This document shows, piece after piece, positions 13,355 to 31,390 of a stretch of 64,000 nucleotides of DNA. Each line of letters opens with the position of its first letter. Position 1 is the stretch's first letter. Source of the stretch: a virus (Duplodnaviria > Caudoviricetes). Below the pieces are notes generated by a model. It was not told the origin of the DNA, made no database searches, and was given only the letters and a program-made list of their open reading frames with translations. The stretch is taken from the IMG/VR virus record IMGVR_UViG_3300032092_000009, positions 32,001 through 96,000 of that record; one strand, written 5' to 3'. Position numbers and translations under genes: made by a program.

Positions 13355-16300
13355 TTTATTATCCAGTACCACAGTAGGCGGAAGTGCCGTAATCACAACA
13401 AGTAATATTGGGAGTTATGCAATTACCTCATTAAGCGGTTATGCAACCCAATCATGGGTTCAATCTCAGGGATATCTTACTTCTGTACCAGCTCAATCTT
13501 GGGCTAGCATTACAAGTAAACCATTTCTTCTTACACTTAACTATGACCAAGGTTCTCCGTGGGCAGGTAACACAGGAGGAAGTGGAAGGAACTTAGTTGC
13601 TTCTTTTCATGGTGCATCTGGAAACAGTGTTATCACTTTTGGTAGTGGTAACGGAGATCTTAACCTTTCTGTAGACGGTAATGTTTATGTTAACGAAGGT
13701 CAAGATATTCTAGCTTCTAGGACTTGGGTTAGTACTTCTGGAAACGCTGCTACAGCAACTACATTTTCTTCTAATAGAACTAACTATAAAAATAATACAG
13801 ACAATGCAGTAGCAGGTCAGTTAATGTGGAAAGCTTATGGTAATAACCACACTATATTTGATGCTTCTGCAAGTACAGCTCCTGATGGAACATCTGTAAA
13901 TAACACAAACTCAGCAGTAGCATGGACAGGTACCTATCCAACCTTAATGGGTTGGAATGGCAGTACTACTTATGGAGTTCGTGTAGATAGTGCAAGAGTG
14001 GCTGACACCGTAACAACTGCTCCTACTGTATATTGGAATAGTATAGTAGGAAAACCTACTGGAAATACAGGATTAGTTCAGTTTGGAGACTATATCAACC
14101 AACCGACTTTTGCTGGAAAGACTCTTACCATGCATCCTTCCACAATTAAGACCTTATTATGGGGAGGAAATGGAAGTAGGTATACCGTAACAACTTCGAC
14201 TACAGGTACTTATCCTCAAGCAGGAAGTACTTATATAGTTACTTATGAATTAATAGACGGAAGCAATTCTGTTTACTCTTCTGGAAATATCTATTGTGGG
14301 TTCTGGAATAACTGTCCTCCAACAAATATTACAGTAAGAGTACAGAATACTAGTGGAACATGGTATGGTCCATATCAAGGGTCTAATATAGGAGTAGGAT
14401 ATTTTGAGTATTGGAAAATACCTTGTGGAGGTCCTAACTTTATTAAGGCTTGGGAAATTACTTTTACTCCTACTGCTGGATGCAATGTTGCTTTAATGAC
14501 TGTTGATATTGTTATCGACAACAGTGAAGGTATTGACCAAGATCCATTTGTAAGTAGAGGAGGTTCTTCTATGCTTGGAAACTTAACTCTTTCAGGGGGA
14601 GCTACCTTAAACTTAACAGGATCTGCAAACAAAGTAATTGCTATAAATCCAGGTAACGGTTATGATGCTATGATTCGCTATAATGGAGGAAGTGGCACTA
14701 ACTGGTACGTAGGTAAGCGTAATACAAATCAACTTGTAGATAGTGCATCTTTTCATTTTTATTCCGATGCAGCAGGTCAAACTGTAGCAGGTATTGATAC
14801 ATCAGGAAACTCTTTTGCTATAGGTTCATTTAGGGCGCCTGTGTTCTATGATTCAAATGACACTAATTACTACGGTAACTTTAATGGCACTTCAGTAGTA
14901 AATTCTATTCGTTTTGGTACCTCAACAAATAACTCGACTTTTTCTGGAGACGGTGCTTGGGGAATTAAATTGTATAATGATAATGGATATATACAATTTG
15001 GTCCTGCAAATACTAGTCATGCGCATATCTATACAGACAGAGCCAACTTCTATTTTAACAAAGACATTCTAATAAATGGTAACTCAGTAATTACTACATC
15101 AACTATTGGTTCACAAACTGCAGGTTCAGTTACAGGATTGACTTTAACTAGTTCTGCAAATAATCTTAACCCAGATAACGTAACTCAGAATCAAATTGGA
15201 TATAATACATCTGTAAGTCTATTTGGACAAACGGATGGGGGTCTTTATTCTTCTGCATATAGTTCTAGTTGGATTCATCAGATTTATGGTGATTTTAGAA
15301 GTGGACAAATTGCAGTAAGGGGAAAAAATAATGGAACATGGCAATCTTGGAGAACCATCCTAGATAGCGGTAACTACACAAGTTACTCTCCCTCCCTTAC
15401 AGGCAGTGGGGCTAGTGGTACCTGGGGAATCAGCATTACTGGTAACTCTGCTTATGCTACAAATAGCACTAGGTTGTATGCTTCCGACTCTCCATATACT
15501 TATGGTGGAGCAGCACCTTACTATATGTATATGAACTACGATGGAGGTAGTTACTGGGAACTCAAAGTTTCTCCTGCTACTCCAGGTGCTGTAAGAGTTG
15601 CTTACTCAAACAATTCTGGAGCTGTAGGTAATATTGATGTATCTCGAATTGTTTATGGAGATGGAGCAAGAGGTAGATCTACAAGTAAGATAGGCGGAAA
15701 TGCTAATACTTCTGATTCTTCAAATTCTTCTGGATTTTATTTTGGAAACGCTGTTGCAGGTATGCCTAGTACAGACTGGTGGAATTGGTTAACTGTAGCA
15801 GGAAATTCTTGGTCAGGAGGAGACGGTTATGCTTATCAAATGGCTGGTTCTTTCTGGGGTGACGACTTCAGATTAAGACGTATGACTAGTGGGACTTGGA
15901 ATTCTTGGTTAACAATTATTCATTCTGGAAATATAGGTTCTCAATCCGTAAACTATGCAACTACTGCAGGGGCACTTAGTTCGATGAACATTTCCCAGTT
16001 CAGTAATAATTCAGGCTATTTAACAGGAATAACGTCAGGACAAGTAACAGGAGCTTTAGGATATACTCCGTATAACTCTAGTAACCCTAATGGATATATA
16101 ACCTCATCAGGAAGTATTAGTGGTAATGCAGCTACGGCTACAACTGCAAATGCTTTAACCAGTATGAACATTTCTCAGTTTACTAATAACTCTGGATACC
16201 TTACTTCCCTTCCTTCACATAATCATGATGATAGATACTACACAGAATCAGAGATTGATTCTCAGATAAGTGGAAGACTATATCAAGCTTCTGTTAATAC

Positions 16301-18041
16301 TTTTGACTTTAATGCTTTTAACGGAACTGGTTTATATAGAGGCTCAACAGGTAGTTGGAGTAATAGACCACCTTCAGGACATAATGGAGGAGCTGTCTTA
16401 CAGATAGACACCCATCCTGGAAACTACCACTCTCAATTGTATTTTGACACAGGGGCAGAGAGACTCTACTTCCGAAATGCTAATGCAGGAACTTGGGGAA
16501 ACTGGTTGACTGTACTTCATAGTAGTAACTTTAACTTATACTCTCCTAGCCTAACGGGAAGTAATGCTAGTGGAACATGGAATATCAATGTAACTGGAAG
16601 TGCAGGATCAGTAGCATGGACTAACGTAAGTTCTCGCCCTACTGCTTTATCTCAATTTACCAACGATCTAGGCAACCTATCTTCAACAGGTGGTACAATA
16701 ACTGGTGACTTAAACCTACAGTATAGTTATCCTCGTATTAATTTTTATGATACAGACAATGACTCTGATTACTCTTTAATTAATAATAATGGTAACTTTA
16801 GTCTTTACGACATTAATAACAACGTTCATCGTTTTGTAGTCTTAGCTGGGGGAAATGTAGGAATCAATACTACTAGTCCTGCTAACTTACTTACCGTTAA
16901 CGGCAGTACAAGAATTGTTACTCATGCCCAGCAAGGTCTATTTGGCTATGATGATCCTACAGGAGGATCTTTTATCTGGTCGATAACTAGATATACAGAC
17001 GGAGATGGTAACGATTTAAATATTAATGCTTTAGCAGGTTTTGCAGTAAAAACAGGAGCTAGTTCTCTTACCAATAGTGGACACCAGTTTTATATAAACT
17101 CAAGTGGAAACGTAGGTATAGGAACCAGACTACCTGTAGGTCAATTAAATGTATTCGGTGGAACAGGTAATAACGCTGCTATCTTAACTCTTCAATCTCA
17201 GTCTGGAGGAAACGGTAACACGGGTATTTATTTTAGGCCTTATCAAAATGAAACTTTTGCTAATAGTGCAGAAGCCCAAGCAGCTATTTTGGCTCAAGAT
17301 GCTAGTTACTCTGCACATATTAAATTCCTAACCAAGGTTCCTGGCTCAGGTACAAACTCTTTAACAGAGAGAATGCGTCTTACTAGTACAGGTAATCTTC
17401 TGATAGGTACTACTACAGATAACGGATTTAAGTTAACTGTAAGCGGAACTGCTAACATTACGAACAATGTTAAGGTAGGATCAAATACTTTTGTTGTAGA
17501 TACTGTAAACAATAGAGTTGGTATCGGAGGAAGTGCTACACCATCCTACACTCTTGAGGTATTAGGTAAAGGCTTTTTTAACGAACAAGTTATTATTGCA
17601 AATGGTGAGGGTCTTTCTCTCTTGAATAATAATGTTCAGATTAAACCACCTGTAATAAACTCACTAGGTTTCTATACTGGCACAAGTGGTGCTAATGAAA
17701 GGATGCGTATCACTCCTTCAGGTAATGTAGGAATTAATACAACAAGTCCAACTACTCTTTTAAATATTAAGGGTACCAGTACTACATCAGCTCTTGCTTC
17801 TTTTAAGGTAGAAAATTTTTCAGGAGATCCTGGAATTATTGTAAATGATGCAGGTAACTTGTTAGTAGGAACAGCTTCTGATTCAGGAAATAGATTAGAG
17901 GTAAATGGAACAGTTAATGCAACTGGATATAAACTTAATGGAGTAACAGGTTATACAGGAATGGTTACTATACAACAAGCACCTCCGATGCCTCCTATAA
18001 CTTTTGATATTCAGAATGGTATAATCATGAGCGTCACCTAA
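13347..18041 (+). CDS. Tail fibre protein, 1564 aa
   Basis: Overlaps the upstream stop. HNHDDRYYTESE motif, three knob-like modules ending G(T)W..W..I(L/I/H).S.N, two YSPSLTGS.ASGTW.I..TG repeats, GNVGI(N/G)T repeats. Confidence 0.85.
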   Translation: MANLLSSTTVGGSAVITTSNIGSYAITSLSGYATQSWVQSQGYLTSVPAQSWASITSKPFLLTLNYDQGSPWAGNTGGSGRNLVASFHGASGNSVITFGSGNGDLNLSVDGNVYVNEGQDILASRTWVSTSGNAATATTFSSNRTNYKNNTDNAVAGQLMWKAYGNNHTIFDASASTAPDGTSVNNTNSAVAWTGTYPTLMGWNGSTTYGVRVDSARVADTVTTAPTVYWNSIVGKPTGNTGLVQFGDYINQPTFAGKTLTMHPSTIKTLLWGGNGSRYTVTTSTTGTYPQAGSTYIVTYELIDGSNSVYSSGNIYCGFWNNCPPTNITVRVQNTSGTWYGPYQGSNIGVGYFEYWKIPCGGPNFIKAWEITFTPTAGCNVALMTVDIVIDNSEGIDQDPFVSRGGSSMLGNLTLSGGATLNLTGSANKVIAINPGNGYDAMIRYNGGSGTNWYVGKRNTNQLVDSASFHFYSDAAGQTVAGIDTSGNSFAIGSFRAPVFYDSNDTNYYGNFNGTSVVNSIRFGTSTNNSTFSGDGAWGIKLYNDNGYIQFGPANTSHAHIYTDRANFYFNKDILINGNSVITTSTIGSQTAGSVTGLTLTSSANNLNPDNVTQNQIGYNTSVSLFGQTDGGLYSSAYSSSWIHQIYGDFRSGQIAVRGKNNGTWQSWRTILDSGNYTSYSPSLTGSGASGTWGISITGNSAYATNSTRLYASDSPYTYGGAAPYYMYMNYDGGSYWELKVSPATPGAVRVAYSNNSGAVGNIDVSRIVYGDGARGRSTSKIGGNANTSDSSNSSGFYFGNAVAGMPSTDWWNWLTVAGNSWSGGDGYAYQMAGSFWGDDFRLRRMTSGTWNSWLTIIHSGNIGSQSVNYATTAGALSSMNISQFSNNSGYLTGITSGQVTGALGYTPYNSSNPNGYITSSGSISGNAATATTANALTSMNISQFTNNSGYLTSLPSHNHDDRYYTESEIDSQISGRLYQASVNTFDFNAFNGTGLYRGSTGSWSNRPPSGHNGGAVLQIDTHPGNYHSQLYFDTGAERLYFRNANAGTWGNWLTVLHSSNFNLYSPSLTGSNASGTWNINVTGSAGSVAWTNVSSRPTALSQFTNDLGNLSSTGGTITGDLNLQYSYPRINFYDTDNDSDYSLINNNGNFSLYDINNNVHRFVVLAGGNVGINTTSPANLLTVNGSTRIVTHAQQGLFGYDDPTGGSFIWSITRYTDGDGNDLNINALAGFAVKTGASSLTNSGHQFYINSSGNVGIGTRLPVGQLNVFGGTGNNAAILTLQSQSGGNGNTGIYFRPYQNETFANSAEAQAAILAQDASYSAHIKFLTKVPGSGTNSLTERMRLTSTGNLLIGTTTDNGFKLTVSGTANITNNVKVGSNTFVVDTVNNRVGIGGSATPSYTLEVLGKGFFNEQVIIANGEGLSLLNNNVQIKPPVINSLGFYTGTSGANERMRITPSGNVGINTTSPTTLLNIKGTSTTSALASFKVENFSGDPGIIVNDAGNLLVGTASDSGNRLEVNGTVNATGYKLNGVTGYTGMVTIQQAPPMPPITFDIQNGIIMSVT

Positions 18042-18977: not shown

Positions 18978-18996
18978 TTTAACTTTATTTCATAAA

Positions 18997-19028
18997 GACC
19001 CTCAGAGAAATCTGGGGGTTTTTTGTTT
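18997..19028 (+). terminator. Intrinsic terminator
   Basis: GACCCTCAGA-GAAA-TCTGGGGGTT hairpin followed by a T tract. Confidence 0.85.
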
Positions 19029-19246: not shown

Positions 19247-19495
19247 ATGAAACTATTAAACTTTATTGGCGGACTCTTCAAAGATGAGAAGGGTGTTGTC
19301 TCCATGAAACGCTTGTGCGGATTAGTATGCACAGCTACACTATGCGCTACATTGTACGCTAACTCTTTTACTGAAGCTCACTTTGCTCCTTCTGTTCCTT
19401 TGGTGGATGCGGTTGCTTTGTTGGCTTTTGGTTGTCTAGGTTTGACTTCTGTTGAGAAAATCATGAAGAAGCCAGAAGCACCTAGCGAAGACTAA
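19247..19495 (+). CDS. Putative holin, 82 aa
   Basis: Two hydrophobic helices, S.KR motif, charged C-terminus, directly upstream of the endolysin-like gene. Confidence 0.6.
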   Translation: MKLLNFIGGLFKDEKGVVSMKRLCGLVCTATLCATLYANSFTEAHFAPSVPLVDAVALLAFGCLGLTSVEKIMKKPEAPSED

Positions 19496-19525: not shown

Positions 19526-20113
19526 ATGAGCTACACAAGAGAACAAATCGAAGCGGCTATGAAAGCCAAAGGTTATAAGTACTTTGAGAATGGAGATTTT
19601 AACGTAAACATTATTGGTGTACGTAACTCTTCTACTGGTACTAAAGTAACTAACGTATTTGACGATCACTTAACTCTTTCTTACAAAGAAGGTGGTGAGT
19701 GGAAATTTAAAATCTGGCCTGCTACTACAGATCCAGGAACTAAGGGTGTTAAAGAATTCCATAACGCTGCAGGTGTTGCACGTTTGGTACCTGGTCAATA
19801 CTCAGGTTCACACCATGTAGGATTGCACCAAGGTAAGTACGAAGCCCTTAAGCAAAAGGCTAACGTTAAAGTTTACCGTGATGCTAACAAAGACATGAAC
19901 TATGACGAGTCCAAGATACAAGAAGGCATCTTCGGTATTAATATTCATAAAGCTGGTGCAGACTCTACCTACGTTGAAAACTGGAGCGAAGGTTGCCAAG
20001 TGTTCAAGAAGTCTGCTGACTTTGATGCATTCATGGTTATCTGTAAGAAGGCTGCGGCATTGGGTGGTAACTCTTTCACTTATACTCTTATTGAATCTAA
20101 AGATATCAAGTAA
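19526..20113 (+). CDS. Putative endolysin, L,D-transpeptidase (YkuD)-like His/Cys peptidase, 195 aa
   Basis: NIIGVRN..FDD..TTDPG..PGQY..GINIHKAG..NWSEGCQV; H-x(n)-S-x-G-C catalytic signature; adjacent to a holin-like gene. Confidence 0.7.
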   Translation: MSYTREQIEAAMKAKGYKYFENGDFNVNIIGVRNSSTGTKVTNVFDDHLTLSYKEGGEWKFKIWPATTDPGTKGVKEFHNAAGVARLVPGQYSGSHHVGLHQGKYEALKQKANVKVYRDANKDMNYDESKIQEGIFGINIHKAGADSTYVENWSEGCQVFKKSADFDAFMVICKKAAALGGNSFTYTLIESKDIK

Positions 20114-20584
20114 ATGAAAGGACTTCTAGTAAGTCTTTTCCTAATTCTTTCTATCCCCTGTTCTTCTCAAATCAATGTGATGAAGGCAGGGGATGGTTGG
20201 GATTTAAAGGTAGACTCGGCCTTAGCATTAATTGCTCAAACTGATGTCAACGCTTATACTAGAGTAATAGATGTCTGCCAAGTAATAGACTTCTGGATTA
20301 GCCCCTATTCCTCTAATACAATCTCCCAAGATGGTGGAACTATATTTATCGCTACAGGAGACATAAAAACGAATTCACTCAATAACCTAGCTTGTGTTAT
20401 TGTACATGAAAGTCTTCACTTATACTACTTGTTACATCCAGTAGAACAGTCACAGGACGAAGAAGAACTTAAGTGTTATATCTACGAGTTAGACTTTATA
20501 AAAAAACTACCAACCCCAGAGCCTTGGTTACAGGCAAATGCAATTGAACAATTACATAAATTAACTAAAACAAAAACAAAATGA
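20114..20584 (+). CDS. Exported zinc metallopeptidase-like protein, 156 aa
   Basis: Signal peptide; VIVHESLH (HExxH) with a downstream EELKCY Glu as possible third ligand. Confidence 0.7.
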   Translation: MKGLLVSLFLILSIPCSSQINVMKAGDGWDLKVDSALALIAQTDVNAYTRVIDVCQVIDFWISPYSSNTISQDGGTIFIATGDIKTNSLNNLACVIVHESLHLYYLLHPVEQSQDEEELKCYIYELDFIKKLPTPEPWLQANAIEQLHKLTKTKTK

Positions 20585-22479
20585 ATAAACTATTTAAAGT
20601 AATCATCGGGGTGTTGACATTGTTGGTTGGCAATGTATCAGCACAAAGTTCTGCTACCTCTCCAGGTACAGGTCATTGGGTTGTAATCGACTCAGGTTAT
20701 CAAGTAGCTACAAACACTGTAGGACAGACTGTAGCTCCTCTACACTTCTACAATACCTCTACTTCTGAAAAGATCACAGGTATGCAGTTCCGTGTATTCT
20801 ACGATAAGACAGCTTTCACAGCAGTTGTTCCTTCTCTTAAGATTTCTTCTACTGATCAATACTTGCAGTATGTAGATAGTAACACACAAGGTTTCTTAAC
20901 TGTTACATTGGCTTACACTGGATCTAGCTCAACATTTAACTACTCTAATGGAGCTACATTTGATCTTACCTTCACACACGCAAGCGCAGCTGTATGGAAC
21001 ACATTGGATTCTATTAAGACTCTTAAGGTATCAGGTGTTAAATCATTCGCTAACAAAGCCGCTACTAACTGGGGTAACGATACTACTTTAGTAGTTTACT
21101 CTTATGGTGGTCGCTTCAACCAGAAAGTATTAAGATTTGCTGCTAAGTTTAAAAACGTAACAGGTTCTGACGCTAAGAACTTGTGGGTGTCTTTGGAAAA
21201 GAAAGCTCCTTCAGGATCTTGGACTCAAGTAGAAGCTAAAGCAACTAACTCTAGTGGTGTTGTTGTATTCCGTAAATTCTTGGATACTACTTACTGGGAT
21301 GTACGTATGGTTGTTAAGGGAGATACTATGACCCCTGGTAACGTATTCTCTACTGCAGATGCACAGAAAATTAACCAGTCTATTCTAGGTCAATATGTTG
21401 CTTCAGGATTTGACTACTACACTATGGACGTAAACGGAACTGATGGAACTATTTCTATTGCTGATGTTTACTCTGTATACGGACGTTTGGCAGGTAGATT
21501 CTCTGCATGGCCTAATTCTAAGAAGGATGTAATGTTCTTTACAGTTGCTGAGTACAACTCAATTAATGGATCTGCTACTAACTTAACTTCTACTTACTCT
21601 ACTATTAATAACTTTAACTACACAATTGACGGTAGAGATTCTATCACTTACTACGTAGCTGTTAAAGGTGATGCTAACTCTACAGGATTTAAGATGGCTC
21701 GTTTAACACCTATTAAGATTGTTAACCCAGCTAATGCTAAGCGTTACATCATTGACGAGACTGTAGAATACGACTTCCCTGCAGAAACTATTGAGATCAA
21801 CATGCCTAAAGTAACTGTAGACGAAGGTAACTTGGTTAACGTACCAGTTAAAGTACTGACTAACGGAAAGAACTTAGGTGCACTACAATTAGACTTGCGT
21901 TATGACACTGCTTACTTAGAGTTTAAGAAAGTAGAAAACACTGAGAAGATGATGAAGTGGACTTCTTACTTGAACCCTTCTAATGGAATCATTTCTTGGG
22001 GAGCTGCTGACTTGACTAACGAGAACATGCTTAATGACGGAGAGCAAGTATTCACTCTTCAATTTATCGCTAAGAAGCCACAAGACTCTTGGGCTACTGC
22101 AGCTTTGTGGACAGGTGCTAAATACGTAGGAGACAAAAACTCTAAAGACATGAACATTACCCCTGCTATGGGAGTAATTGAAGTACGTAGAATTAACAAG
22201 GGAGTTGTTTCACTTAATGACTTGAACTCTATTATTACTTTTCCTAACCCTACAGAAGGTCCAGTACAAATACAATTCAAGATCAAAGAAGACAGCGAAG
22301 TAGACGTAGCTATCTCTGATGAGGTGGGAAGACGTGTACAAACGATTTTAAGAGAAAGAATGCCTGCAGGTAAGTACAAGTATAATACAAACCTAGATCG
22401 TCTCCCTAATGGCTTCTATGTACTTTCTGTAACAACTCAAAAAGAAATCTTACACTCCAAAATAATCGTACAAAAATGA
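20581..22479 (+). CDS. Exported cohesin / dockerin / cohesin protein with T9SS type A C-terminal sorting domain, 632 aa
   Basis: Signal peptide VSA|Q; cohesin-like ITGMQFRVFYD and VNVPVKV..LGALQLDLRYD..DGEQVFTLQF; dockerin/EF-hand-like MDVNGTDGTISIADV; CTD FPNPT..G..V..LPNGFYVLSV..SKIIVQK. Confidence 0.75.
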   Translation: MNKLFKVIIGVLTLLVGNVSAQSSATSPGTGHWVVIDSGYQVATNTVGQTVAPLHFYNTSTSEKITGMQFRVFYDKTAFTAVVPSLKISSTDQYLQYVDSNTQGFLTVTLAYTGSSSTFNYSNGATFDLTFTHASAAVWNTLDSIKTLKVSGVKSFANKAATNWGNDTTLVVYSYGGRFNQKVLRFAAKFKNVTGSDAKNLWVSLEKKAPSGSWTQVEAKATNSSGVVVFRKFLDTTYWDVRMVVKGDTMTPGNVFSTADAQKINQSILGQYVASGFDYYTMDVNGTDGTISIADVYSVYGRLAGRFSAWPNSKKDVMFFTVAEYNSINGSATNLTSTYSTINNFNYTIDGRDSITYYVAVKGDANSTGFKMARLTPIKIVNPANAKRYIIDETVEYDFPAETIEINMPKVTVDEGNLVNVPVKVLTNGKNLGALQLDLRYDTAYLEFKKVENTEKMMKWTSYLNPSNGIISWGAADLTNENMLNDGEQVFTLQFIAKKPQDSWATAALWTGAKYVGDKNSKDMNITPAMGVIEVRRINKGVVSLNDLNSIITFPNPTEGPVQIQFKIKEDSEVDVAISDEVGRRVQTILRERMPAGKYKYNTNLDRLPNGFYVLSVTTQKEILHSKIIVQK

Positions 22480-22823
22480 ACATTAAAAAAGCACTTGGTT
22501 TTAGCCAAGCAGAACCAGTAGTAGTAGATCCTAAGAATAGGTTCTATTATATGCTACAACAAATGCAAGCCAATCGTTGGAAGATCACTGCTATCGTATT
22601 AGGTTTGTTCTTCTTTATTATCCTTGGTATTAACTCAGCTGTATTCTTCGGAGTAGAGATTGCGGAGAACTGGAAAGAAATGTTGCTTATTCTTTTTGGA
22701 GCATTCGTAGGTAATTTGAACAAAGTAGTAGACTACTGGTTTAATTCTGAAGATCGAGATAAGATGCTAATACAGAAGGTGGATGAGGAAGATGGTGAAT
22801 CATTGTCAAATAATAATCCATAA
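22476..22823 (+). CDS. Two-TM membrane protein (holin-like), 115 aa
   Basis: Two hydrophobic helices, LFGAFVG..VVDYWFNS, acidic tail; ATGA overlap with the upstream gene. Confidence 0.6.
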   Translation: MNIKKALGFSQAEPVVVDPKNRFYYMLQQMQANRWKITAIVLGLFFFIILGINSAVFFGVEIAENWKEMLLILFGAFVGNLNKVVDYWFNSEDRDKMLIQKVDEEDGESLSNNNP

Positions 22824-22827
22824 TAAT

Positions 22828-23151
22828 ATGTCAGAAGAACAAGAAGAAAGCGTAATGTCAGCTACTAAGAAAGCTATCATTGGCGCAGTCACCACTGCTG
22901 TAACTGCAGGAGGTGCATGGTTTGCCACTCACTTTGGTGGCGGTGAAGAACCTAAAGAAGAAGCTAAAACAGAACAAGCACCCGCTGCTGCTCCTGTGAT
23001 TAACTTGAATCTAGAGAACAACAACACTAACCAGCAGAAACAATCTTCAGGTGGAACTACTACTATCATCAAAGAAAGAACAGTAGAAAAACCTGCAGCT
23101 CAATCTGCTCCTGCAACCAAACCACAAGCTGATGAGGAAGATCCTTGGTAA
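22828..23151 (+). CDS. Small membrane-anchored low-complexity protein, 107 aa
   Basis: ATG 22828 after an A-rich leader; AIIGAVTTAVTAGGAWF hydrophobic segment, APVINLNLENNN, ends EEDPW. Confidence 0.7.
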   Translation: MSEEQEESVMSATKKAIIGAVTTAVTAGGAWFATHFGGGEEPKEEAKTEQAPAAAPVINLNLENNNTNQQKQSSGGTTTIIKERTVEKPAAQSAPATKPQADEEDPW

Positions 23152-23839
23152 ATGGTTTAACAAGTTCATGACTCTTGTAGTCTTGACCTTAGCAGGTTGT
23201 GGTTCTATGAAGACTACTACCGAAGAAGATAAAGTGGAGGTTAAAGACATCTCCACTGTATCTAATTATAGTGATTCTATTAAAAAAACAGTACAAGTGG
23301 TAAGCGTAGATATGACCAAGGTACTTGCTCTTTATCCTGCTCTTCAGGAAAAGAACGTAGGTCTTGGATTTGCAGAATCTGTTTTGGATTATTTGGATGA
23401 AACAAACAGATTTATATTTACGGAAGAAAAATCAGAGATCAAAGAAAGAATGGTCACTCAATTCAAAGCATCAAAGAAAGGCGTATTCGATGAGCCTATT
23501 GATGGCAAAGGTAAGATTAAGCCTGCTCACTACTTTGTGTATGTTACTGTGGCTGATTTTGCTGTTGATGAAGACGAGCAAGTTGATGGCCTTAAGTCAA
23601 AAGTTGTTGTCACTACCTTCATTCGTTTACAAGTTCGCTTTGTGGACGCTAAAACAGGTCAGATCTATATTGGATCTGGCGAAGGAGAGTCGACTAAGAC
23701 TGGTGAATCATTCTTAAAATCTTTAGATGATATGAAGTTCTCTCAAAGCACAGTAGGTAAAGCTACTCGTAAATCTTTGGAGACAGCTTGTACTAATGTG
23801 ATTCAAAATCTCATTAAGTCAGGTGTATTTAAAAACTAA
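23132..23839 (+). CDS. CsgG-like (curli assembly / FlgO / TolB-N fold) lipoprotein, 235 aa
   Basis: Lipobox LAG|C; GLGFAESVLDYLDETNRF, GKIKPAHYFVYVTVADF, LQVRFVDAKTGQI..GSGEG pattern typical of the CsgG superfamily. Confidence 0.7.
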   Translation: MRKILGKWFNKFMTLVVLTLAGCGSMKTTTEEDKVEVKDISTVSNYSDSIKKTVQVVSVDMTKVLALYPALQEKNVGLGFAESVLDYLDETNRFIFTEEKSEIKERMVTQFKASKKGVFDEPIDGKGKIKPAHYFVYVTVADFAVDEDEQVDGLKSKVVVTTFIRLQVRFVDAKTGQIYIGSGEGESTKTGESFLKSLDDMKFSQSTVGKATRKSLETACTNVIQNLIKSGVFKN

Positions 23840-25298
23840 AATACTAATACTATTTATGATAGCTCTGTCTCTTCGGGGGCAGAGCTTTATTTATTCGTAT
23901 ACAGATCCGTGTACACAGGAGTTAAAGTTTATTAACGCAGACATGTCTAGTCCTATAGTGATTGCTTACTACGGACAGGTTAAAACTTTCTCCTACACAG
24001 AGTTACAAGATGGTACGTTTGATAATTGGATAAATAGTGTATATTTGAAGTATCAAAGTACATCACCCTGTCAAGGAGTTGGAGTAACAACTACTACAAC
24101 TACCACAACAAATACTACCCTAAACATTGTAAGCAATGTTATGAACCTAGGGGCTATTTCAAATGTTGGTAGTGTAAACGTAGACGTAGGCTCAAGTACC
24201 TCTTCAGGAACAAACATAGGAACAACAAAAACCAATAATAACAATGACAATCGAACTAGTTCTCGGAATCGTACTAGCAGTAGCTCTAGTCGTTCTAATT
24301 CTTCTGGCAGCTCGTCAGGAGAAAATGGAAAATCAAATGATGGAGGAAACTCATCAGAAAATCAAAGTGGGTCTTCATCCAACTCCAACTCCAGTGGAGA
24401 AGGCAGCGGAGAAGGTAATGGAGGAAGCAGTAGCTCCAGCTCCAGTTCCAGTAGTAGTGGAGGAAACTCCAGTGGTAGTGGAACTAGTGGAAGTAGTAGT
24501 GGAAGCTCCCAAGGTGGAGGCGGAAGTGGTGGTAAAACCGAAGAAAAAACGGAAGTACAAACCGAGGAACCCACAGAACAAAAAGTAGAAGAAACTAAAA
24601 CTGAGACTCAAAAATCTCAGTCTACTGGTACTGCAAAAGCTGCAGGAAAAGCTAAAGCCGAAGTTGCTAAGCCTGCAATCTTAGTAACTGGTGATTTAGT
24701 TGGTATTCAGACTAAGTCTGATGGAGCACAAGATGCAAGAGGTACTGCCTCTTTTACTAGAGTAAAGGGAGACGGTACTTCTTCTCTTGGGTTTTCAGCT
24801 GACTACATGGTTAACGCTAGAATAGGAAATATCTCTTGCGTACGTTCCTGGATAGGAGCAAACAAAAAAGGACACAAACATATCAGTGTTGTATCTGATG
24901 GACTTAGCATAATGCCTAAGTCAATGTCAAACACTCTTCTATTTGTAAGAGTTAATTCAGTTAAAAACTTTACAGCGCTCTACGGAGCAGCGGGAACCTA
25001 CGGTAAACTATTTGGAGAAGAAATGATTTCTACCATTGCCATAGGAGGTTTTATGTACAAAGGTAAACTTACTAAGAGTATAGACGCTACAGTTATTATG
25101 GCTGGTATCTATTCTCCTTATTCTAAGTATTACACAGAGTCTATATTTGAAGCTAAGCCTATTGTTATTCCTTTCTTCAACTTTACATATAGAATGACCA
25201 AGACTTTTGGTTTAGGTATTACTGGAGGAGGAACATACGTAGCAGGACAGGATATATTGAACTTTCAATTATTAATGGGAGCTAAGTTATTAATATGA
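23823..25298 (+). CDS. Exported protein: N-terminal Cys-pair domain, Ser/Gly linker, probable C-terminal outer-membrane beta-barrel, 491 aa
   Basis: Signal peptide LRG|Q, YTDPC..SPC, long Ser/Gly tract, alternating amphipathic strands ending LNFQLLMGAKLLI. Confidence 0.6.
   Translation: MYLKTKILILFMIALSLRGQSFIYSYTDPCTQELKFINADMSSPIVIAYYGQVKTFSYTELQDGTFDNWINSVYLKYQSTSPCQGVGVTTTTTTTTNTTLNIVSNVMNLGAISNVGSVNVDVGSSTSSGTNIGTTKTNNNNDNRTSSRNRTSSSSSRSNSSGSSSGENGKSNDGGNSSENQSGSSSNSNSSGEGSGEGNGGSSSSSSSSSSSGGNSSGSGTSGSSSGSSQGGGGSGGKTEEKTEVQTEEPTEQKVEETKTETQKSQSTGTAKAAGKAKAEVAKPAILVTGDLVGIQTKSDGAQDARGTASFTRVKGDGTSSLGFSADYMVNARIGNISCVRSWIGANKKGHKHISVVSDGLSIMPKSMSNTLLFVRVNSVKNFTALYGAAGTYGKLFGEEMISTIAIGGFMYKGKLTKSIDATVIMAGIYSPYSKYYTESIFEAKPIVIPFFNFTYRMTKTFGLGITGGGTYVAGQDILNFQLLMGAKLLI
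24244..24588 (+). CDS. Nested alternative-frame membrane protein, 114 aa
   Basis: A-rich leader ACCAATAATAACA-ATG, clean N-terminal TM helix, Glu/Val/Pro stalk, basic tail KPKKKRKYKPRNPQNKK. Confidence 0.6.
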   Translation: MTIELVLGIVLAVALVVLILLAARQEKMENQMMEETHQKIKVGLHPTPTPVEKAAEKVMEEAVAPAPVPVVVEETPVVVELVEVVVEAPKVEAEVVVKPKKKRKYKPRNPQNKK

Positions 25299-26278
25299 GG
25301 TGGTTAGTTATTCTATTCTTTATTGTAAGCCCTCTAAGTGCACAATTTACTTATTCTGGATACTTGTATAATGCAAATGGATCTGGGGCCAACAACGTAG
25401 CTATAAAACTGTATAGAAGAACTAACTCAACTATTACAGGCTTTACTAATCAGCAGAACTACAACGGGCACTCTTATTACCGTTCTACAGGAACTGCATT
25501 TTGGACTACAGCCAAGACTAACTGCTCTAATATGGGAGGGCACTTAGTAACTATTACAACTTCAGGAGAGCAAAGTTTTCTATATAATCTCTGGCCTTCT
25601 GGATGGATAGGACTAACAGATGAAGTAACAGAAGGTACTTGGAGATGGGTTACAGGGGAAAGTTATTCTTATTCTAACTGGAACTCTGGAGAACCTAATA
25701 ATGCAGGTAACGAAGATTATGTTCAATTTGTATCTAATGGTAGGTGGAATGACTTACCTAATAACTACGCACTTCCTTATGTACTAGAGTTTGAGTATTT
25801 AGTAACTACTTCTTCTTGGACACTCTACAAGACTATATATACTAACTCTTCGGGTTACTATTCTATTTCTGAGACTTACGATCCTTCTAAGGAATACTAC
25901 ATTGAGATAGATGCTCCTACCAGAATTCAATCTTATACAACTTCAGACATTCAAGGAGTATCTAATATTATTCTCGGAAGGAGTGTAAGGAATGGTTTGT
26001 CTTTTCATATGTTTGATGTTAATGAAGACGGAGTAATTTCTATAGCAGATAAGTATTATGTAGCTGCGAGGAAAGCTGGTTTATTCTCTAGATGGAGAAC
26101 AGCTCCTGATGTAAGGATCTTTACTACTGCTCAATACAATTCAATTAAAGCAGCAACAACAAACGTAAGAGCAACCTATCCTGGAGTTACTACTCATACT
26201 ACAACTACCTTAACCTCAGGGGGAAGTTTAAACTTATATATAATAGCTCCTGGCTATGCTGGAGCAGTAACCTACTAA
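25295..26278 (+). CDS. Exported C-type lectin plus dockerin-like protein, 327 aa
   Basis: Signal peptide LSA|Q; CTLD motifs YNGHSYY, C..MGGHLVTI, WIGLTD, EG.W.W, W..GEPNN, WND; dockerin-like FDVNEDGVISIAD. Confidence 0.85.
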   Translation: MRWLVILFFIVSPLSAQFTYSGYLYNANGSGANNVAIKLYRRTNSTITGFTNQQNYNGHSYYRSTGTAFWTTAKTNCSNMGGHLVTITTSGEQSFLYNLWPSGWIGLTDEVTEGTWRWVTGESYSYSNWNSGEPNNAGNEDYVQFVSNGRWNDLPNNYALPYVLEFEYLVTTSSWTLYKTIYTNSSGYYSISETYDPSKEYYIEIDAPTRIQSYTTSDIQGVSNIILGRSVRNGLSFHMFDVNEDGVISIADKYYVAARKAGLFSRWRTAPDVRIFTTAQYNSIKAATTNVRATYPGVTTHTTTTLTSGGSLNLYIIAPGYAGAVTY

Positions 26279-26280
26279 CT

Positions 26281-26727
26281 ATGAAAAAACTATTTATACT
26301 TTGCTTTCTAGTCACTATGATGACTTCTCTGAGTGCTCAATGCTATAAAGTTGACACTGTAACATCAATTGCTTCTGTAACAGAAATAGGAGGAAGACCT
26401 ATAATCTTTGGAGCACAAACAACTTTAGAAGAGATTGCAGCCTCAAAGTACCAACTATGTAATGAGGGCAGTCCTATTTCAGGAACAATCAAATCCATTG
26501 CTATGCCTGAAGAACTCTTAAATATCGTAGGGTTACAGTTTCTTAAGAGAGACTATATTGTAATCACTGAGATAAATCTAAATGGAGTAACTGTTCTTGG
26601 AGAGGCTAAAAAGACTGTCTATGTTAATGCTATGTTTGTTTCTGTAGAAGGTATTCCTCATAACAGAAAAGCTTATTCTAAGGCATTGGAGAAGTCTTTC
26701 AAGAATGGATTTGAGAATTTGAAATAG
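26281..26727 (+). CDS. Exported protein, 148 aa
   Basis: Signal peptide LSA|QC, Cys pair, C-terminal helix AYSKALEKS reminiscent of the end of the CsgG-like protein. Confidence 0.7.
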   Translation: MKKLFILCFLVTMMTSLSAQCYKVDTVTSIASVTEIGGRPIIFGAQTTLEEIAASKYQLCNEGSPISGTIKSIAMPEELLNIVGLQFLKRDYIVITEINLNGVTVLGEAKKTVYVNAMFVSVEGIPHNRKAYSKALEKSFKNGFENLK

Positions 26728-29380: not shown

Positions 29381-31390
29381 ATGTATCCAAATCTAGAAAG
29401 TCCTGAATTCCTAATCAACGTACACAATCTCCCTGACGCAGACTCAGAGGAGTATACTGCGTTCTGGGAAAACGAGGACAAAAAGATTACAGAGGGTGTA
29501 ACTATTAACGGATTCTATTTTTCTCCTTTTATTTACTGGCACTTAAACTACTGGTCCATTTATGTGGACACTATGATAGGTAAGCGTCAAGTTCGTAAAT
29601 TAGATAAACCTCAGTTGTGGGACACCTACTTAGCTGTAGATGAAACTATCAACAAAGCTGAGAATCACGAAGACGGAAAGAAAGGAGTTGTTATGGTAGG
29701 ATCAAGACGTATCTCTAAATCAGTTCTTACTTCTTCCTATATGGCTCACAAGGCTGTAACACAGAAGGGATCTGACAACTTGATATCTGCGCTTAATCAA
29801 CCTGACTTAAAAGTAATCACAGACTATGTAGACTTAGGTCTTAGAAACCTTCCTGACTATTTTAGATTTCCTCGTATTGAGGATGACTGGAAGAAGCAGG
29901 TAACTTTAGGTTTTAAAGATAAAAAGACTAACGCTCGTAATGAGTGGTCTAAGTTTCATGTACGTAACTTCGATGAAGGTAACAATACGGAAGCAGCGGC
30001 AGGTCTTACTCTATCTTCGTTTCTTTTGGAAGAAGGAGGAAAAGGAAAGATCCTTAGTTGTTTAGCGGCAACTACTCCGTGTTTTGATAGTCCTTATGGA
30101 TGGCGTTGCTCTCCTTTTGTAATTGGAACTTCTGGAGACATGAGTAAAGCAGCTGACCTAGAAGAACTTTTCAATAACCCAGAAGCTTATAACTTTCTTC
30201 CTGTAGAATCTAACGAATCAGGAAAGTCTTACGGATTGTTTATTCCAGGAACTCGTTCTTTGAAAGTACCAAAAGAAGAAAAGCCTTTAGGACTTTACTT
30301 AGGTAAGGAAGGTCAGTCCGAGTTAGATCTAATTAAGATCTGGGTAGCAGACGAAGAAAAAGGTAAAGACCAGATTCTTAAGTCTAGAGAGCAGATTAAA
30401 AAGTCTAGTGGATTAGAGACTTACTTGAAAGAAGTAATGTATTACCCACTAACTCATGAAGAGTGTTTCCTAGAACTGTCTCAGAATATCTTTCCAGTAG
30501 ATTTGCTTCAGGAACAATTACAGAAACTAACAGCTCAAGAGATTGTAGCTGACAACGTAGAACTGTATACAGGATCTGAAGGAACTATTAGACACAAGTT
30601 TACAGATAAGAAAGCCGTTACAATGTTCCCAGTGAAGCCAACAGATGACATTGAGGGTTGCGTACAGATTTGGGAATATCCTCTCTCAGATGCTCCCTAT
30701 GGGCTTTATACAGCAGGAACGGATCCATACAAACAATCACAGGCTCACTACTCAACTTCTTTAGGGTCTACTTACATCTACAAAAGGGTACATAGTCTTA
30801 ACGGAGAAGGGTGGCAGAATATGGTTGTTGCTTGTTACACAGGTCGTCCTAAGAAGATTGAGACTTGGTACGAGACTACTAAGATGCTTCTTAAGTATTA
30901 CAATGCTAAGACTCTTTGTGAAAACATGGACTACGGTTTTATCCAACACTGTGTAGATAAGAACGAATCTCCCAGAGTACTTGAGAAGACACCTAGATTC
31001 TTAAATGATATTCATCCTAACTCTACAGTTAATCGTGACTATGGTATTCACATGACTAAAGATATTAAAAACTATTTGATGTCCCTCATCATTGAATACA
31101 TTACCGAAGTAGTAGAGATAGAGAGAGACGCAGATGGAAACATAGTAAAAGAACGCTTAGGAGTAACCAGAATATTAGACCCTGTACTGATTAAGGAATT
31201 AATTAAGTTTACACCTAAGTTAAACGTTGACCGAGTTATATCTTTTGGCTTGACATTAGCAATGGCTAAATCATTGAACACTCAGGTAATCATATCTGAT
31301 GCAAGTCAAGACACTAGAATGCAAGCATACTTTAGAGAGAAGAAAGGGAACTCTCTATTCCGTACTACCTCATCTCCCTTCCGTTATTAA
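29381..31390 (+). CDS. terL: Terminase large subunit, 669 aa
   Basis: Walker A-like GSRRISKS, Walker B-like FLLEEGG, VIGTSG coupling motif, RNase H nuclease AGTDPY..CEN..NVDRV; precedes the portal gene. Confidence 0.92.
   Translation: MYPNLESPEFLINVHNLPDADSEEYTAFWENEDKKITEGVTINGFYFSPFIYWHLNYWSIYVDTMIGKRQVRKLDKPQLWDTYLAVDETINKAENHEDGKKGVVMVGSRRISKSVLTSSYMAHKAVTQKGSDNLISALNQPDLKVITDYVDLGLRNLPDYFRFPRIEDDWKKQVTLGFKDKKTNARNEWSKFHVRNFDEGNNTEAAAGLTLSSFLLEEGGKGKILSCLAATTPCFDSPYGWRCSPFVIGTSGDMSKAADLEELFNNPEAYNFLPVESNESGKSYGLFIPGTRSLKVPKEEKPLGLYLGKEGQSELDLIKIWVADEEKGKDQILKSREQIKKSSGLETYLKEVMYYPLTHEECFLELSQNIFPVDLLQEQLQKLTAQEIVADNVELYTGSEGTIRHKFTDKKAVTMFPVKPTDDIEGCVQIWEYPLSDAPYGLYTAGTDPYKQSQAHYSTSLGSTYIYKRVHSLNGEGWQNMVVACYTGRPKKIETWYETTKMLLKYYNAKTLCENMDYGFIQHCVDKNESPRVLEKTPRFLNDIHPNSTVNRDYGIHMTKDIKNYLMSLIIEYITEVVEIERDADGNIVKERLGVTRILDPVLIKELIKFTPKLNVDRVISFGLTLAMAKSLNTQVIISDASQDTRMQAYFREKKGNSLFRTTSSPFRY

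Follow-up and report, generated by a model that had tools for sequence, protein, structure and literature searches.

Why would a phage place eight consecutive genes for exported proteins beside its lysis genes, and what would it build from them in the envelope of its host? The question is raised by an operon in a stretch of 64,000 nucleotides of viral DNA, here called the window, which covers bases 32001-96000 of the IMG/VR virus record IMGVR_UViG_3300032092_000009 (110,868 bp, with an estimated completeness of about 94%). The operon comprises eight genes on the + strand at positions 20114-26727 of the window, directly 3' of a PHROG endolysin gene, and takes up 6% of the genome. Its genes are abutting or overlapping, with overlaps of 4, 4, 20, 17 and 4 nt and otherwise gaps of 2-4 nt. 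Consisting of six core and two accessory genes, horizontally mobile and encoding products that all leave the cytoplasm, it is a new, widespread and mobile phage module built from known parts. The reading that we find most probable, while giving it somewhat less than an even chance, is that of a cohesin-dockerin display by which the infected cell presents glycan-binding heads and which is anchored by way of the T9SS (type IX secretion system).

The initial annotation, made from the letters and their open reading frames (ORFs), had described eight contiguous genes directed to the host envelope. The ORF positions confirm this layout. Export signals, which were judged from the sequences and a hydropathy and motif script rather than a dedicated signal-peptide predictor, agree with envelope targeting: w156, w632, w491, w327 and w148 start with signal-peptide-like segments, w235 carries a lipobox, w115 has two hydrophobic segments and w122 has one weak, Gly/Ala/Thr-rich anchor. 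The genes and the modules of their products are the following.

20114..20584, + strand: w156, 156 aa, small secreted protein with HExxH...E, putative minimal metallopeptidase; accessory and highly variable
20581..22479, + strand: w632, 632 aa, scaffold with signal peptide, cohesin 1, dockerin-like module, cohesin 2 and T9SS C-terminal sorting domain (CTD)
~20710-21060, + strand: cohesin 1 of w632 (Pfam)
21124-21696, + strand: beta-sandwich and dockerin-like module of w632 (module profile A4, 2.2e-67), calcium loop at 21427-21465
~21793-22182, + strand: cohesin 2 of w632 (Pfam)
~22240-22470, + strand: type-A T9SS CTD of w632 (Por_Secre_tail, TIGR04183)
22476..22823, + strand: w115, 115 aa, two-transmembrane inner-membrane protein by hydropathy, with an acidic C-terminal tail; accessory
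22783/22828-23151, + strand: w122/w107, 122/107 aa, N-terminal anchor, Pro/Ala/Gln-rich low-complexity periplasmic part, acidic stretch and Trp end
23132..23839, + strand: w235, 235 aa, CsgG-family lipoprotein, lipobox LAGC at 23189-23200
23823..25298, + strand: w491, 491 aa, GTG start, barrel protein with signal peptide, N-domain, disordered linker and C-terminal barrel
~23883-24053, + strand: small two-Cys N-domain of w491 (AlphaFold2 (AF2) pLDDT ~70)
24066-24674, + strand: disordered S/G/T/N-rich linker of w491, ~200 aa (residues 82-284, pLDDT <50)
24675-25289, + strand: predicted 12-strand beta-barrel of w491 (AF2, strands pLDDT 65-75)
25295..26278, + strand: w327, 327 aa, cargo with signal peptide, C-type lectin head in a beta-sandwich and dockerin-like module; no T9SS CTD
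~25460-25789, + strand: C-type lectin head of w327 (Lectin_C), inserted in the beta-sandwich; EPN at 25691-25699, WND at 25745-25753
25811-26275, + strand: dockerin-like module of w327 (profile A4, 2.0e-70), calcium loop at 26015-26050
26281..26727, + strand: w148, 148 aa, small secreted protein, fold unassigned; core member, highly variable

The scaffold w632 matches Pfam Cohesin (PF00963) at 6.6e-16 in two stretches. In a scan of its own genome, where the cut-off was 24.1 bits, the score of cohesin 2 was 46.3 bits and that of cohesin 1 24.5 bits; cohesin 1 is borderline, with 24.0 bits when residues 1-200 were scanned alone. Both cohesins are over the cut-off in the full scan, the first of them barely. 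The T9SS sorting signal of a cargo, as named in the initial annotation, is recovered as well: a type-A sorting domain sits at the extreme C-terminus over the cut-offs of both Pfam (Por_Secre_tail, PF18962, 38.2 bits, 1.7e-9, cut-off 27, residues 554-630 of 632) and NCBIfam (TIGR04183, 34.4 bits, 1.6e-8, cut-off 23). It scored 42.6 bits in the own-genome scan and is the sole domain of its kind there. Across the whole genome, profile scans found a single CTD besides two cohesins and two dockerin modules, and no others. From the CTD, secretion of the scaffold by the T9SS and its attachment to the cell surface are predicted, and binding between the cohesin and dockerin modules of the phage is putative; a complex prediction of both cohesins with the dockerin module of w327 gave scores of 0.19 and 0.12 against a mark of 0.32, which is no verdict either way. 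Among viral loci the CTD (22240-22470) occurs in two allele classes, one about 71-93% and the other about 36-52% identical to that of the window, and the class varies independently of the remaining scaffold sequence.

The module of about 190 aa between the two cohesins of w632 is also the C-terminal half of w327, with 30-32% identity. Since its second calcium loop, DxNxDGxxxxxD, is intact (D69, N71 and D80 are invariant in the A4 alignment) and its first is degenerate, we call it dockerin-like and divergent. Direct matches are sub-threshold: the w327 module yields EF-hand_5 alone in Pfam (0.022), Dockerin_1 appears below threshold in 6 of 23 module homologues (best 0.0017), and the top PDB profile match, the ScaB dockerin 4uyp_B, aligns over both helices with a non-significant E of 0.12. 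Bacterial homologues provide the connection. Profile A4 matches 10 of 400 Bacteroidota genomes besides a phage contig, in ORFs of 213-2946 aa and with E-values from 5.6e-8 to 9.6e-4, all but three of the 16 places lying in ORFs longer than 1,000 aa. In seven of eight excised bacterial segments Pfam Dockerin_1 is over the cut-off (24.9-44.9 bits), wholly or partly inside the A4-matched span in six of them and just downstream of it in one (L112). A CarboxypepD_reg match lies upstream in four of the eight segments, three of them among the seven Dockerin_1-positive ones, with sub-threshold scores of 21.6-24.0 bits (cut-off 32.3), and the phage module, from equally weak matches, is apparently likewise preceded by a CarboxypepD_reg-like sandwich. 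Among language-model neighbours, the nearest named Atlas clusters of the module are Dockerin_1 (score 0.95), with 23 of 30 matches in that set. The dockerins first proposed here can thus be retained, with good support through homology to Dockerin_1-bearing bacterial ORFs and the Atlas neighbours, in the form of a divergent dockerin-like module that stays below the Pfam cut-off in the phage proteins themselves and has one degenerate calcium loop.

In the cargo protein w327, Lectin_C (PF00059) was found with 62.1 bits (9.9e-17), animal C-type lectin domains in the PDB match up to 4.4e-25, and the EPN...WND motif of the sugar site is kept in 27 of 27 lectin-type ORFs, so that the C-type lectin suspected from the letters is borne out. 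The EPN motif stands for mannose-type specificity. Related loci carry at least four head types in this slot, each between a near-identical N-terminal stretch with the conserved strands and the dockerin module.

C-type lectin head: 327-328 aa, 31 of 78 ORFs found
PA14 head: 383 aa, Pfam 1.4e-5
GEVED head: 355-359 aa, Pfam 6.4e-12
head with no Pfam match: 397-400 aa

The heads vary even among phages whose CsgG-like proteins are 94-95% identical to that of the window (L005-L010, L016-L019). In these ORFs heads are exchanged at the lectin slot, on a dockerin frame that stays constant.

A synteny search in IMG/VR had been set beforehand as a test of co-conservation. A CsgG-like relative is encoded in 126 IMG/VR stretches, of which 80 loci were kept, and our counts use the 52 with enough flank. 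All 52 have the scaffold, anchor, CsgG-like, barrel, cargo and w148 genes, in one and the same order, while w115 and w156 were each found in 47. Median identity to the window is highest for w235 (86%), the most conserved gene of the operon, followed by w115 (82.5%), w632 (79%), w491 (72%), w122 (68%), w156 (51%) and w148 (49%); by these identities the operon divides into a conserved part, its "machinery", and a variable part. Freshwater metagenomes of 12 studies contain near-identical DNA, and three of the samples are possibly the source. Kept in every examined related locus, moved across lineages and carried by phages in 12 freshwater studies, the operon appears to be under strong selection.

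The only cultured phage type matched among 50,697 phage records is the Flavobacterium phage vB_FspM_immuto (MW353176), a myovirus with the host Flavobacterium sp. LMO8. Its genes 13-19 hold the same six core families, with identities to the window of 50% for the lectin, 43% for the CsgG-like protein, 28% for the barrel, 27% for the w148-type protein and 31% and 25% for the scaffold genes. It differs from the window, whose terminase did not match it, in its gene order, in which the lectin comes first, in the absence of w115, w156, an adjacent endolysin and the lipobox, and in its neighbours, which are replication genes and a secreted nuclease. Here the scaffold is divided between two genes, with the break exactly behind the dockerin module: the adaptor has a cohesin and a dockerin and no CTD, the anchor a signal peptide of its own, a cohesin and the CTD. 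The GenBank labels in this phage are limited to "cohesin domain-containing" and "lectin C-type". Its gene 12 (L001:8259-8837), an EndoG/NUC1-type nuclease with a signal-peptide-like start, may be another exported phage protein. Compared with genome contigs, an 8-row alignment matched only two loci, both phage-like. The cassette is also carried, with the order of the anchor and w115 genes swapped, by a 254-kb contig (L084) binned in a Bacteroidetes metagenome-assembled genome (MAG), which looks like a jumbo phage because of its tail-collar, GH19/peptidoglycan-binding endolysin and Tad6 genes and which also encodes a ribose-phosphate pyrophosphokinase; its scaffold CTD scores 44.5 bits, over the curated cut-off. 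The terminase of the window has no match in immuto or in this contig, and therefore the cassette has probably moved as a whole, as a mobile functional unit, between unrelated phages. With its order kept in all 52 loci and its recurrence in these two further lineages, the operon goes beyond a chance arrangement.

The scaffold has counterparts in the host phylum. Four of five Bacteroidota genomes with matches to the dockerin module hold 4-9 cohesin matches each, and in five of five examined ORFs a cohesin is followed by a T9SS CTD, three of these CTDs being over the cut-off and the others at 21.7 and 25.8 bits; Dockerin_1 is over the cut-off upstream of the cohesin-CTD end in two of the five. 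The (Dockerin_1)-Cohesin-T9SS CTD ends lie in L118:1171-3333 (-), L121:1177-3348 (-), L123:1162-3312 (-), L119:3-1343 (+) and L120:235-2595 (-), with sizes from 787 aa (L120) to 2180 aa. Such Bacteroidota surface proteins (in G208, G132, G366 and G314) show the same order of Dockerin_1, Cohesin and Por_Secre_tail as the phage scaffold, and their dockerin, like the phage module, is often preceded by a CarboxypepD_reg-like sandwich. In contrast to the phage proteins they are mostly about 790-4,400 aa long, single polypeptides in unrelated contexts, with similarity at the profile level only. These ORFs point to a non-cellulosomal cohesin-dockerin network among Bacteroidota T9SS cargo, and by their domain order the dockerin-cohesin-CTD surface proteins are the likely source of the C-terminal half of the scaffold. 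As that half copies a recurrent end-piece of the host phylum, the phage parts could possibly plug into the network of the host. No paper on the bacterial dockerin-cohesin-CTD ends was found in the openly accessible literature. Cellular copies of the cassette itself were looked for and rejected, the four examined among the nearest Bacteroidota relatives of w235 being ordinary CsgG-family genes with no cohesins or barrel nearby.

Between the scaffold and cargo genes lie those for the CsgG-like lipoprotein and the barrel. For w235 itself, no match to Pfam CsgG (PF03783) was found at E <= 0.1, and NCBIfam gave a weak match to the signal-peptide region of LpoB. A profile of 41 relatives (A1) matched E. 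coli CsgG in the PDB at 4.2e-5, and with an AF2 model of pLDDT 82 the top ten Foldseek matches were CsgG chains, from 2.6e-7. VIA aligned the model with CsgG at Z 13.1-11.9 and a root mean square deviation of 3.2-3.7 A over 156-172 residues, the best being 4uv2 (Z 13.1, 3.2 A, 156 residues), followed by PelC at Z 10.1 and LptE at about 9. The Pfam CsgG cut-off was passed by 10 of 21 scanned proteins, namely distant relatives and fused forms. Relatives of w235 occur in 56 of 401 Bacteroidota genomes, and the four examined are all clear CsgG-family members (1e-38 to 1.7e-42) in unrelated contexts: three of them neighbour ECF sigma/anti-sigma and ABC genes (in L100 the ABC assignment comes from ORF sizes only), and the fourth has CopD-like, redoxin and PIG-L genes around it. 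In its profile, its fold and its relatives alike, w235 is consistent with a CsgG-family lipoprotein; of the CsgG-like pore named in the initial annotation, the family survives on these modelled and profile grounds, and the pore is putative. CsgG itself forms a nonameric pore of 36 strands, to which each subunit contributes two transmembrane hairpins; the TM1 region of w235 falls short of that of CsgG by 6 residues. General Pfam and NCBIfam scans of nine proteins gave no family match to CsgE, CsgF, CsgA or CsgB.

The overlapping gene encodes the barrel protein w491, whose C-terminal domain was predicted as a 12-strand barrel. With Foldseek and VIA its fold matches are exclusively outer-membrane barrels at Z 10-13, with no single winner, which agrees with the proposed beta-barrel. 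The autotransporter barrels of NalP, AIDA-I and EspP are among the many tied matches (Z 10.5-11.6); w491 has no Pfam autotransporter match, and no helix lies beside the barrel in the AF2 model. Profile A8 of the barrel found no match in 400 Bacteroidota genomes apart from the phage contig. The linker of w491 is rich in Ser, Gly, Thr and Asn (54, 33, 27 and 22 of 203 residues). In the DNA, this region (24071-24611) gives long spurious ORFs at 24244-24588 (+), 24362-24574 (-) and 24375-24611 (-), and a spike in metagenome contig depth (~1800) at 24026-24279 stems from the same low-complexity linker.

Cellulosomes are built from cohesin and dockerin modules in a hierarchy of anchor, adaptor and cargo, with enzymes as cargo and SLH or sortase anchoring. 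The phage set resembles the clostridial ones in its cohesins and dockerins, in the hierarchy, which is clearest in immuto, and in the varied cargo on a constant docking module. It departs from them in a cargo that is a sugar-binding head and not an enzyme, in a single intact calcium loop per module, in being encoded by a virus and in an anchoring that would be by T9SS CTD in a diderm.

Two partial precedents exist among phages. According to the available part of one study, csgGF genes without curli subunit genes are carried by pelagimyophages (HTVC008M) and the Methylophilales phage Melnitz, and uptake, "sibling capture" and lysis timing were proposed as their roles (PMC9004378). Our operon has in common with that account a CsgG-family gene in an aquatic phage and no curli subunit genes; unlike there, no CsgF-like gene was recognised here in the Pfam and NCBIfam scans, the hosts are Bacteroidota, and csgG is locked to barrel and cohesin-dockerin genes (compared with the same part of PMC9004378). 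Moreover, w235 is shorter than E. coli CsgG and lies below the Pfam CsgG threshold. For "Cryophage", the accessible portion of a second study describes variable T9SS type-A cargo genes, including a PA14 gene, that differ between near-identical genomes, and suggests superinfection exclusion (PMC7468147). It likewise concerns a Bacteroidota phage encoding T9SS type-A cargo with PA14 included, but each cargo there has its own CTD and that portion reports no cohesin, dockerin, CsgG or barrel (PMC7468147), whereas here one CTD-bearing scaffold would carry CTD-less cargo. The lipoprotein-barrel pairs LptE-LptD and PelC-PelB offer another comparison: the w235 fold also matches PelC and LptE, its gene overlaps the barrel gene, and PelBC and LptDE are among the fold matches of w491. 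In contrast to these pairs, CsgG scores two Z units above PelC and LptE, and for w491 no relation in sequence with LptD or PelB turned up.

A phage cohesin-dockerin system was not found in the openly accessible literature, although a description in subscription journals is possible, and papers naming phage immuto, judged by title, deal with other topics. Our searches therefore agree with the earlier remark that no description of this combination was known, with the accessible parts of PMC9004378 and PMC7468147 and the GenBank labels of immuto as partial precedents.

Taken together, we favour display on a scaffold because the genome encodes two cohesins, two dockerins and one CTD, because immuto splits the scaffold, because the heads are swapped and because the host phylum offers a precedent. 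The cellulosome-like, lectin-displaying complex suggested in the initial annotation keeps its outline on these points, as a prediction from sequence and models. Two outcomes that would have told against it did not occur: every fold and domain named there was recovered except the peptidase, which stays at the level of a motif, and the genes are co-conserved. Host Sec and T9SS would export the scaffold during infection and fix it on the outer face of the outer membrane, where calcium-dependent cohesin-dockerin contacts would hang lectin-type heads on it, in the order of anchor, adaptor and head in the split version of immuto. The scaffold might also be linked to the host's own dockerin-cohesin-CTD surface proteins. 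The genus Flavobacterium has the T9SS. An outer-membrane unit made up of the CsgG-like lipoprotein, the barrel, w148 and the anchor protein would serve the display, possibly as a route for parts without a CTD; such cargo might cross either by hitch-hiking on the scaffold or through this unit. The infected cell would gain strain-specific sugar binding, most likely altering its adhesion, either through capture of a neighbouring host cell or particle or through masking, in cis, of the phage's own glycan receptor, which we weight about equally. Aggregation, superinfection exclusion and spanin substitution, the roles offered initially, are guesses.

Several results speak against such a display. Neither w327 nor w632 has a Dockerin_1 (PF00404) match at E <= 0.1, the phage proteins being below the Pfam cut-off, and the degenerate first dockerin segment keeps the helix T/S-x-D-x-x-x-x-N-x-x-I-L-G without a calcium loop. 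No co-variation was seen between the type of the cargo dockerin and either cohesin; the cohesins of L049 and L050, with a dockerin 36% identical to that of the window, are as similar to the window's as those of L082, with a dockerin 88% identical. There is only one Cys in w327 (C77), and so the disulfides of animal C-type lectins are absent. Both w327 and the immuto adaptor lack a CTD that would take them across the outer membrane. In place of the two hairpins of CsgG, the w235 model shows a single 19-residue hairpin (134-172), whose tip is charged, and one further long strand (178-192), and the CsgG-like homologue of immuto is without the lipobox Cys; it is because of the charged tip, the three long strands and the missing lipobox in immuto that a pore formed by w235 is only putative. 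Half of the operon genes (w156, w115, w122 and w148) are so far without a role. Finally, the operon stands beside lysis genes in two lineages, the window and L084, and 33 of the 52 loci have a homologue of the endolysin no more than 2.5 kb away.

The last point keeps alive a lysis-accessory role, in which the two-transmembrane protein, the anchored periplasmic protein, the CsgG-like lipoprotein and the barrel would reach across the envelope and, once the endolysin has acted, breach or weaken the outer membrane in place of spanins, the HExxH protein would cut envelope tethers, and lectin and scaffold would direct the complex to envelope glycans. The operon directly follows a holin-like ORF with two transmembrane segments and the endolysin gene, with a hairpin only ahead of the whole unit; in the jumbo contig, the GH19 endolysin and a small protein with HExxH stand next to the cassette; the pairing of a membrane-anchored protein with a lipoprotein whose gene overlaps recalls Rz/Rz1; and lysis timing is among the proposals for phage csgGF in the available part of PMC9004378. 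As a main function, lysis is disfavoured by the context in immuto, where the core genes lie among replication genes, with a secreted nuclease beside them, and where w115, w156 and a neighbouring endolysin are all missing, and by the cohesin, dockerin and lectin content, since lysis would leave the presence of two cohesins and two dockerins, the T9SS signal and the exchange of sugar-binding heads unaccounted for. Nor do the two candidates look like a spanin pair: the periplasmic part of w122 is of low complexity and, judged by eye, not a coiled coil, and w235 is a folded CsgG-like protein of 235 aa, unlike short o-spanins, with a homologue in immuto that has no lipobox. We consider this explanation unlikely.

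Similarly improbable, in our view, is an elaboration of the display in which a ring of the CsgG-family protein and the 12-strand barrel, held to the inner membrane through the Pro/Ala-rich anchor, would form a new outer-membrane translocon that exports CTD-less dockerin proteins into the T9SS-anchored viral scaffold and the host network, exchangeable lectin heads then capturing uninfected kin or masking the phage receptor. That the CsgG-like and barrel genes and the cohesin and lectin genes serve two independent functions and merely travel together, for example as a pelagimyophage-type channel and host-derived surface morons, appears quite improbable. The available parts of PMC9004378 and PMC7468147 describe phage csgG without cohesins and phage T9SS cargo genes without csgG, respectively, and the present results contain no physical link between the halves; nevertheless, all 52 loci have both halves, which also stay together in three phage lineages whose neighbouring genes differ and whose gene order has changed in part, the envelope genes of the window and L084 have the scaffold gene on their upstream side and the cargo gene on their downstream side, and outside these phages the barrel family was not found. 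More doubtful still is a periplasmic or envelope-remodelling complex with no surface display, whose proteins would stay in the periplasm or the inner leaflet of the outer membrane, whose heads would bind peptidoglycan or lipopolysaccharide precursors and whose CTD would be a relic of the bacterial source gene. Only one exported protein has a CTD, the cargo signal is of the Sec type only, and the dockerin-cohesin-CTD end of the scaffold does look copied from bacterial surface proteins; yet the CTD is above curated cut-offs in the window (38.2 bits) and in the jumbo contig (44.5 bits), in immuto it is borne by a separate small cohesin protein, a sign that it is under selection, and rapid swapping of heads suits variable surface glycans better than invariant peptidoglycan. 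Arming of virions with heads via cohesin and dockerin was dropped, as neither domain occurs outside w632 and w327.

If the display on infected cells is real, it would rank as the first cohesin-dockerin system of a virus, and the phage would be employing the T9SS of its host to give a dying cell a new surface, with swapped heads acting like a second receptor-binding locus, on the cell instead of the virion. It would give a handle on the purpose of phage csgG and on the role of the Bacteroidota dockerin-cohesin-CTD ends. The cultured pair of phage immuto and Flavobacterium sp. LMO8 makes the function testable, and the modular frame could be usable for surface display in Bacteroidota.

The remaining genes place the operon in its genome. 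Judged by its genes, the phage of the window is a crAss/phi4:1-like phage of 110.9 kb. Around the operon lie tail-fibre genes (9494-18041) and, 3' of it, the genes for the large terminase (29381-31390), the portal and the major head protein. The large terminase is of the crAss / Cellulophaga phi4:1 type; its best cultured match has 38.5% identity, and the next, at about 28-29%, are Cellulophaga phi4:1-type and crAss-like phages. That best match is "Leptolyngbya phage Lbo-JY46", a host label that is odd for an otherwise Bacteroidota-tied lineage. The putative endolysin is encoded at 19526..20113 (+ strand; phrog_33083 at 3.2e-13, phrog_3000 at 1.4e-38), abutting the operon in the same direction, and yielded no Pfam match and no PDB sequence match. 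An ORF of 82 aa (19247-19495) between a hairpin and the endolysin gene has two hydrophobic segments and a charged tail and, by these features, is likely a holin; no family match was found for it. The hairpin, strong and terminator-like (18994-19023), precedes this ORF, the endolysin and the eight genes, all in one direction. A scan for sigma-70 promoters gave nothing above shuffles and is uninformative for these hosts. Short contigs from one metatranscriptome library fall on 17 of 30 bins of the stretch, a weak signal with possible DNA carry-over, and two RNA runs (X23, X24) yielded nothing that could be placed on it.

Among the small proteins, w156 has H98, E99, H102 and E125 invariant in 19 homologues and no family over threshold in Pfam or NCBIfam (TIGR04267 at 0.033); its counterpart in L084 matches DUF6782 at 1.3e-4, with 21.8 bits below the cut-off of 27. 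A relationship to SLM4 was rejected, the PDB profile matches being at chance level. For the peptidase named initially, then, the invariant HExxH...E motif stands and membership of a curated family does not. No match to w115 was found in the 50,697 phage records, immuto included. Its copy in the jumbo contig (L084:6623-6982) is 82% identical, while neighbouring cassette proteins share 29-50%, which by comparison indicates very strong constraint or recent transfer. Homologues of w122 are immuto gene 16 (51% over 51 aa) and L084:6246-6605 (43%), and w148 has homologues in immuto (27%) and L084 (30%); for w148, no PDB relative was found, hhalign against the w235 profile gave a probability of 2.5%, and the nearest Atlas clusters are viral hypotheticals.

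Further observations concern the related loci. In L084, 13006-13665 encodes a homologue of the anti-Thoeris protein Tad6 (1.2e-21), and an extra barrel-like gene at 10501-11322, considered as a relative of w491, is unrelated to its barrel. A 16.5 kb contig (L083, RFPL01000028.1) carries the cassette with a CsgG-like protein 92% identical to that of the window and is binned in a Sphingomonadaceae MAG, an assignment that is probably a binning artefact. In L007 (6330-7414), and also in L008, L009, L023-L025, L045 and L046, a four-ORF insert lies between w115 and the anchor gene, two of its ORFs being DUF2589 proteins (2.5e-30 and 2.9e-13).

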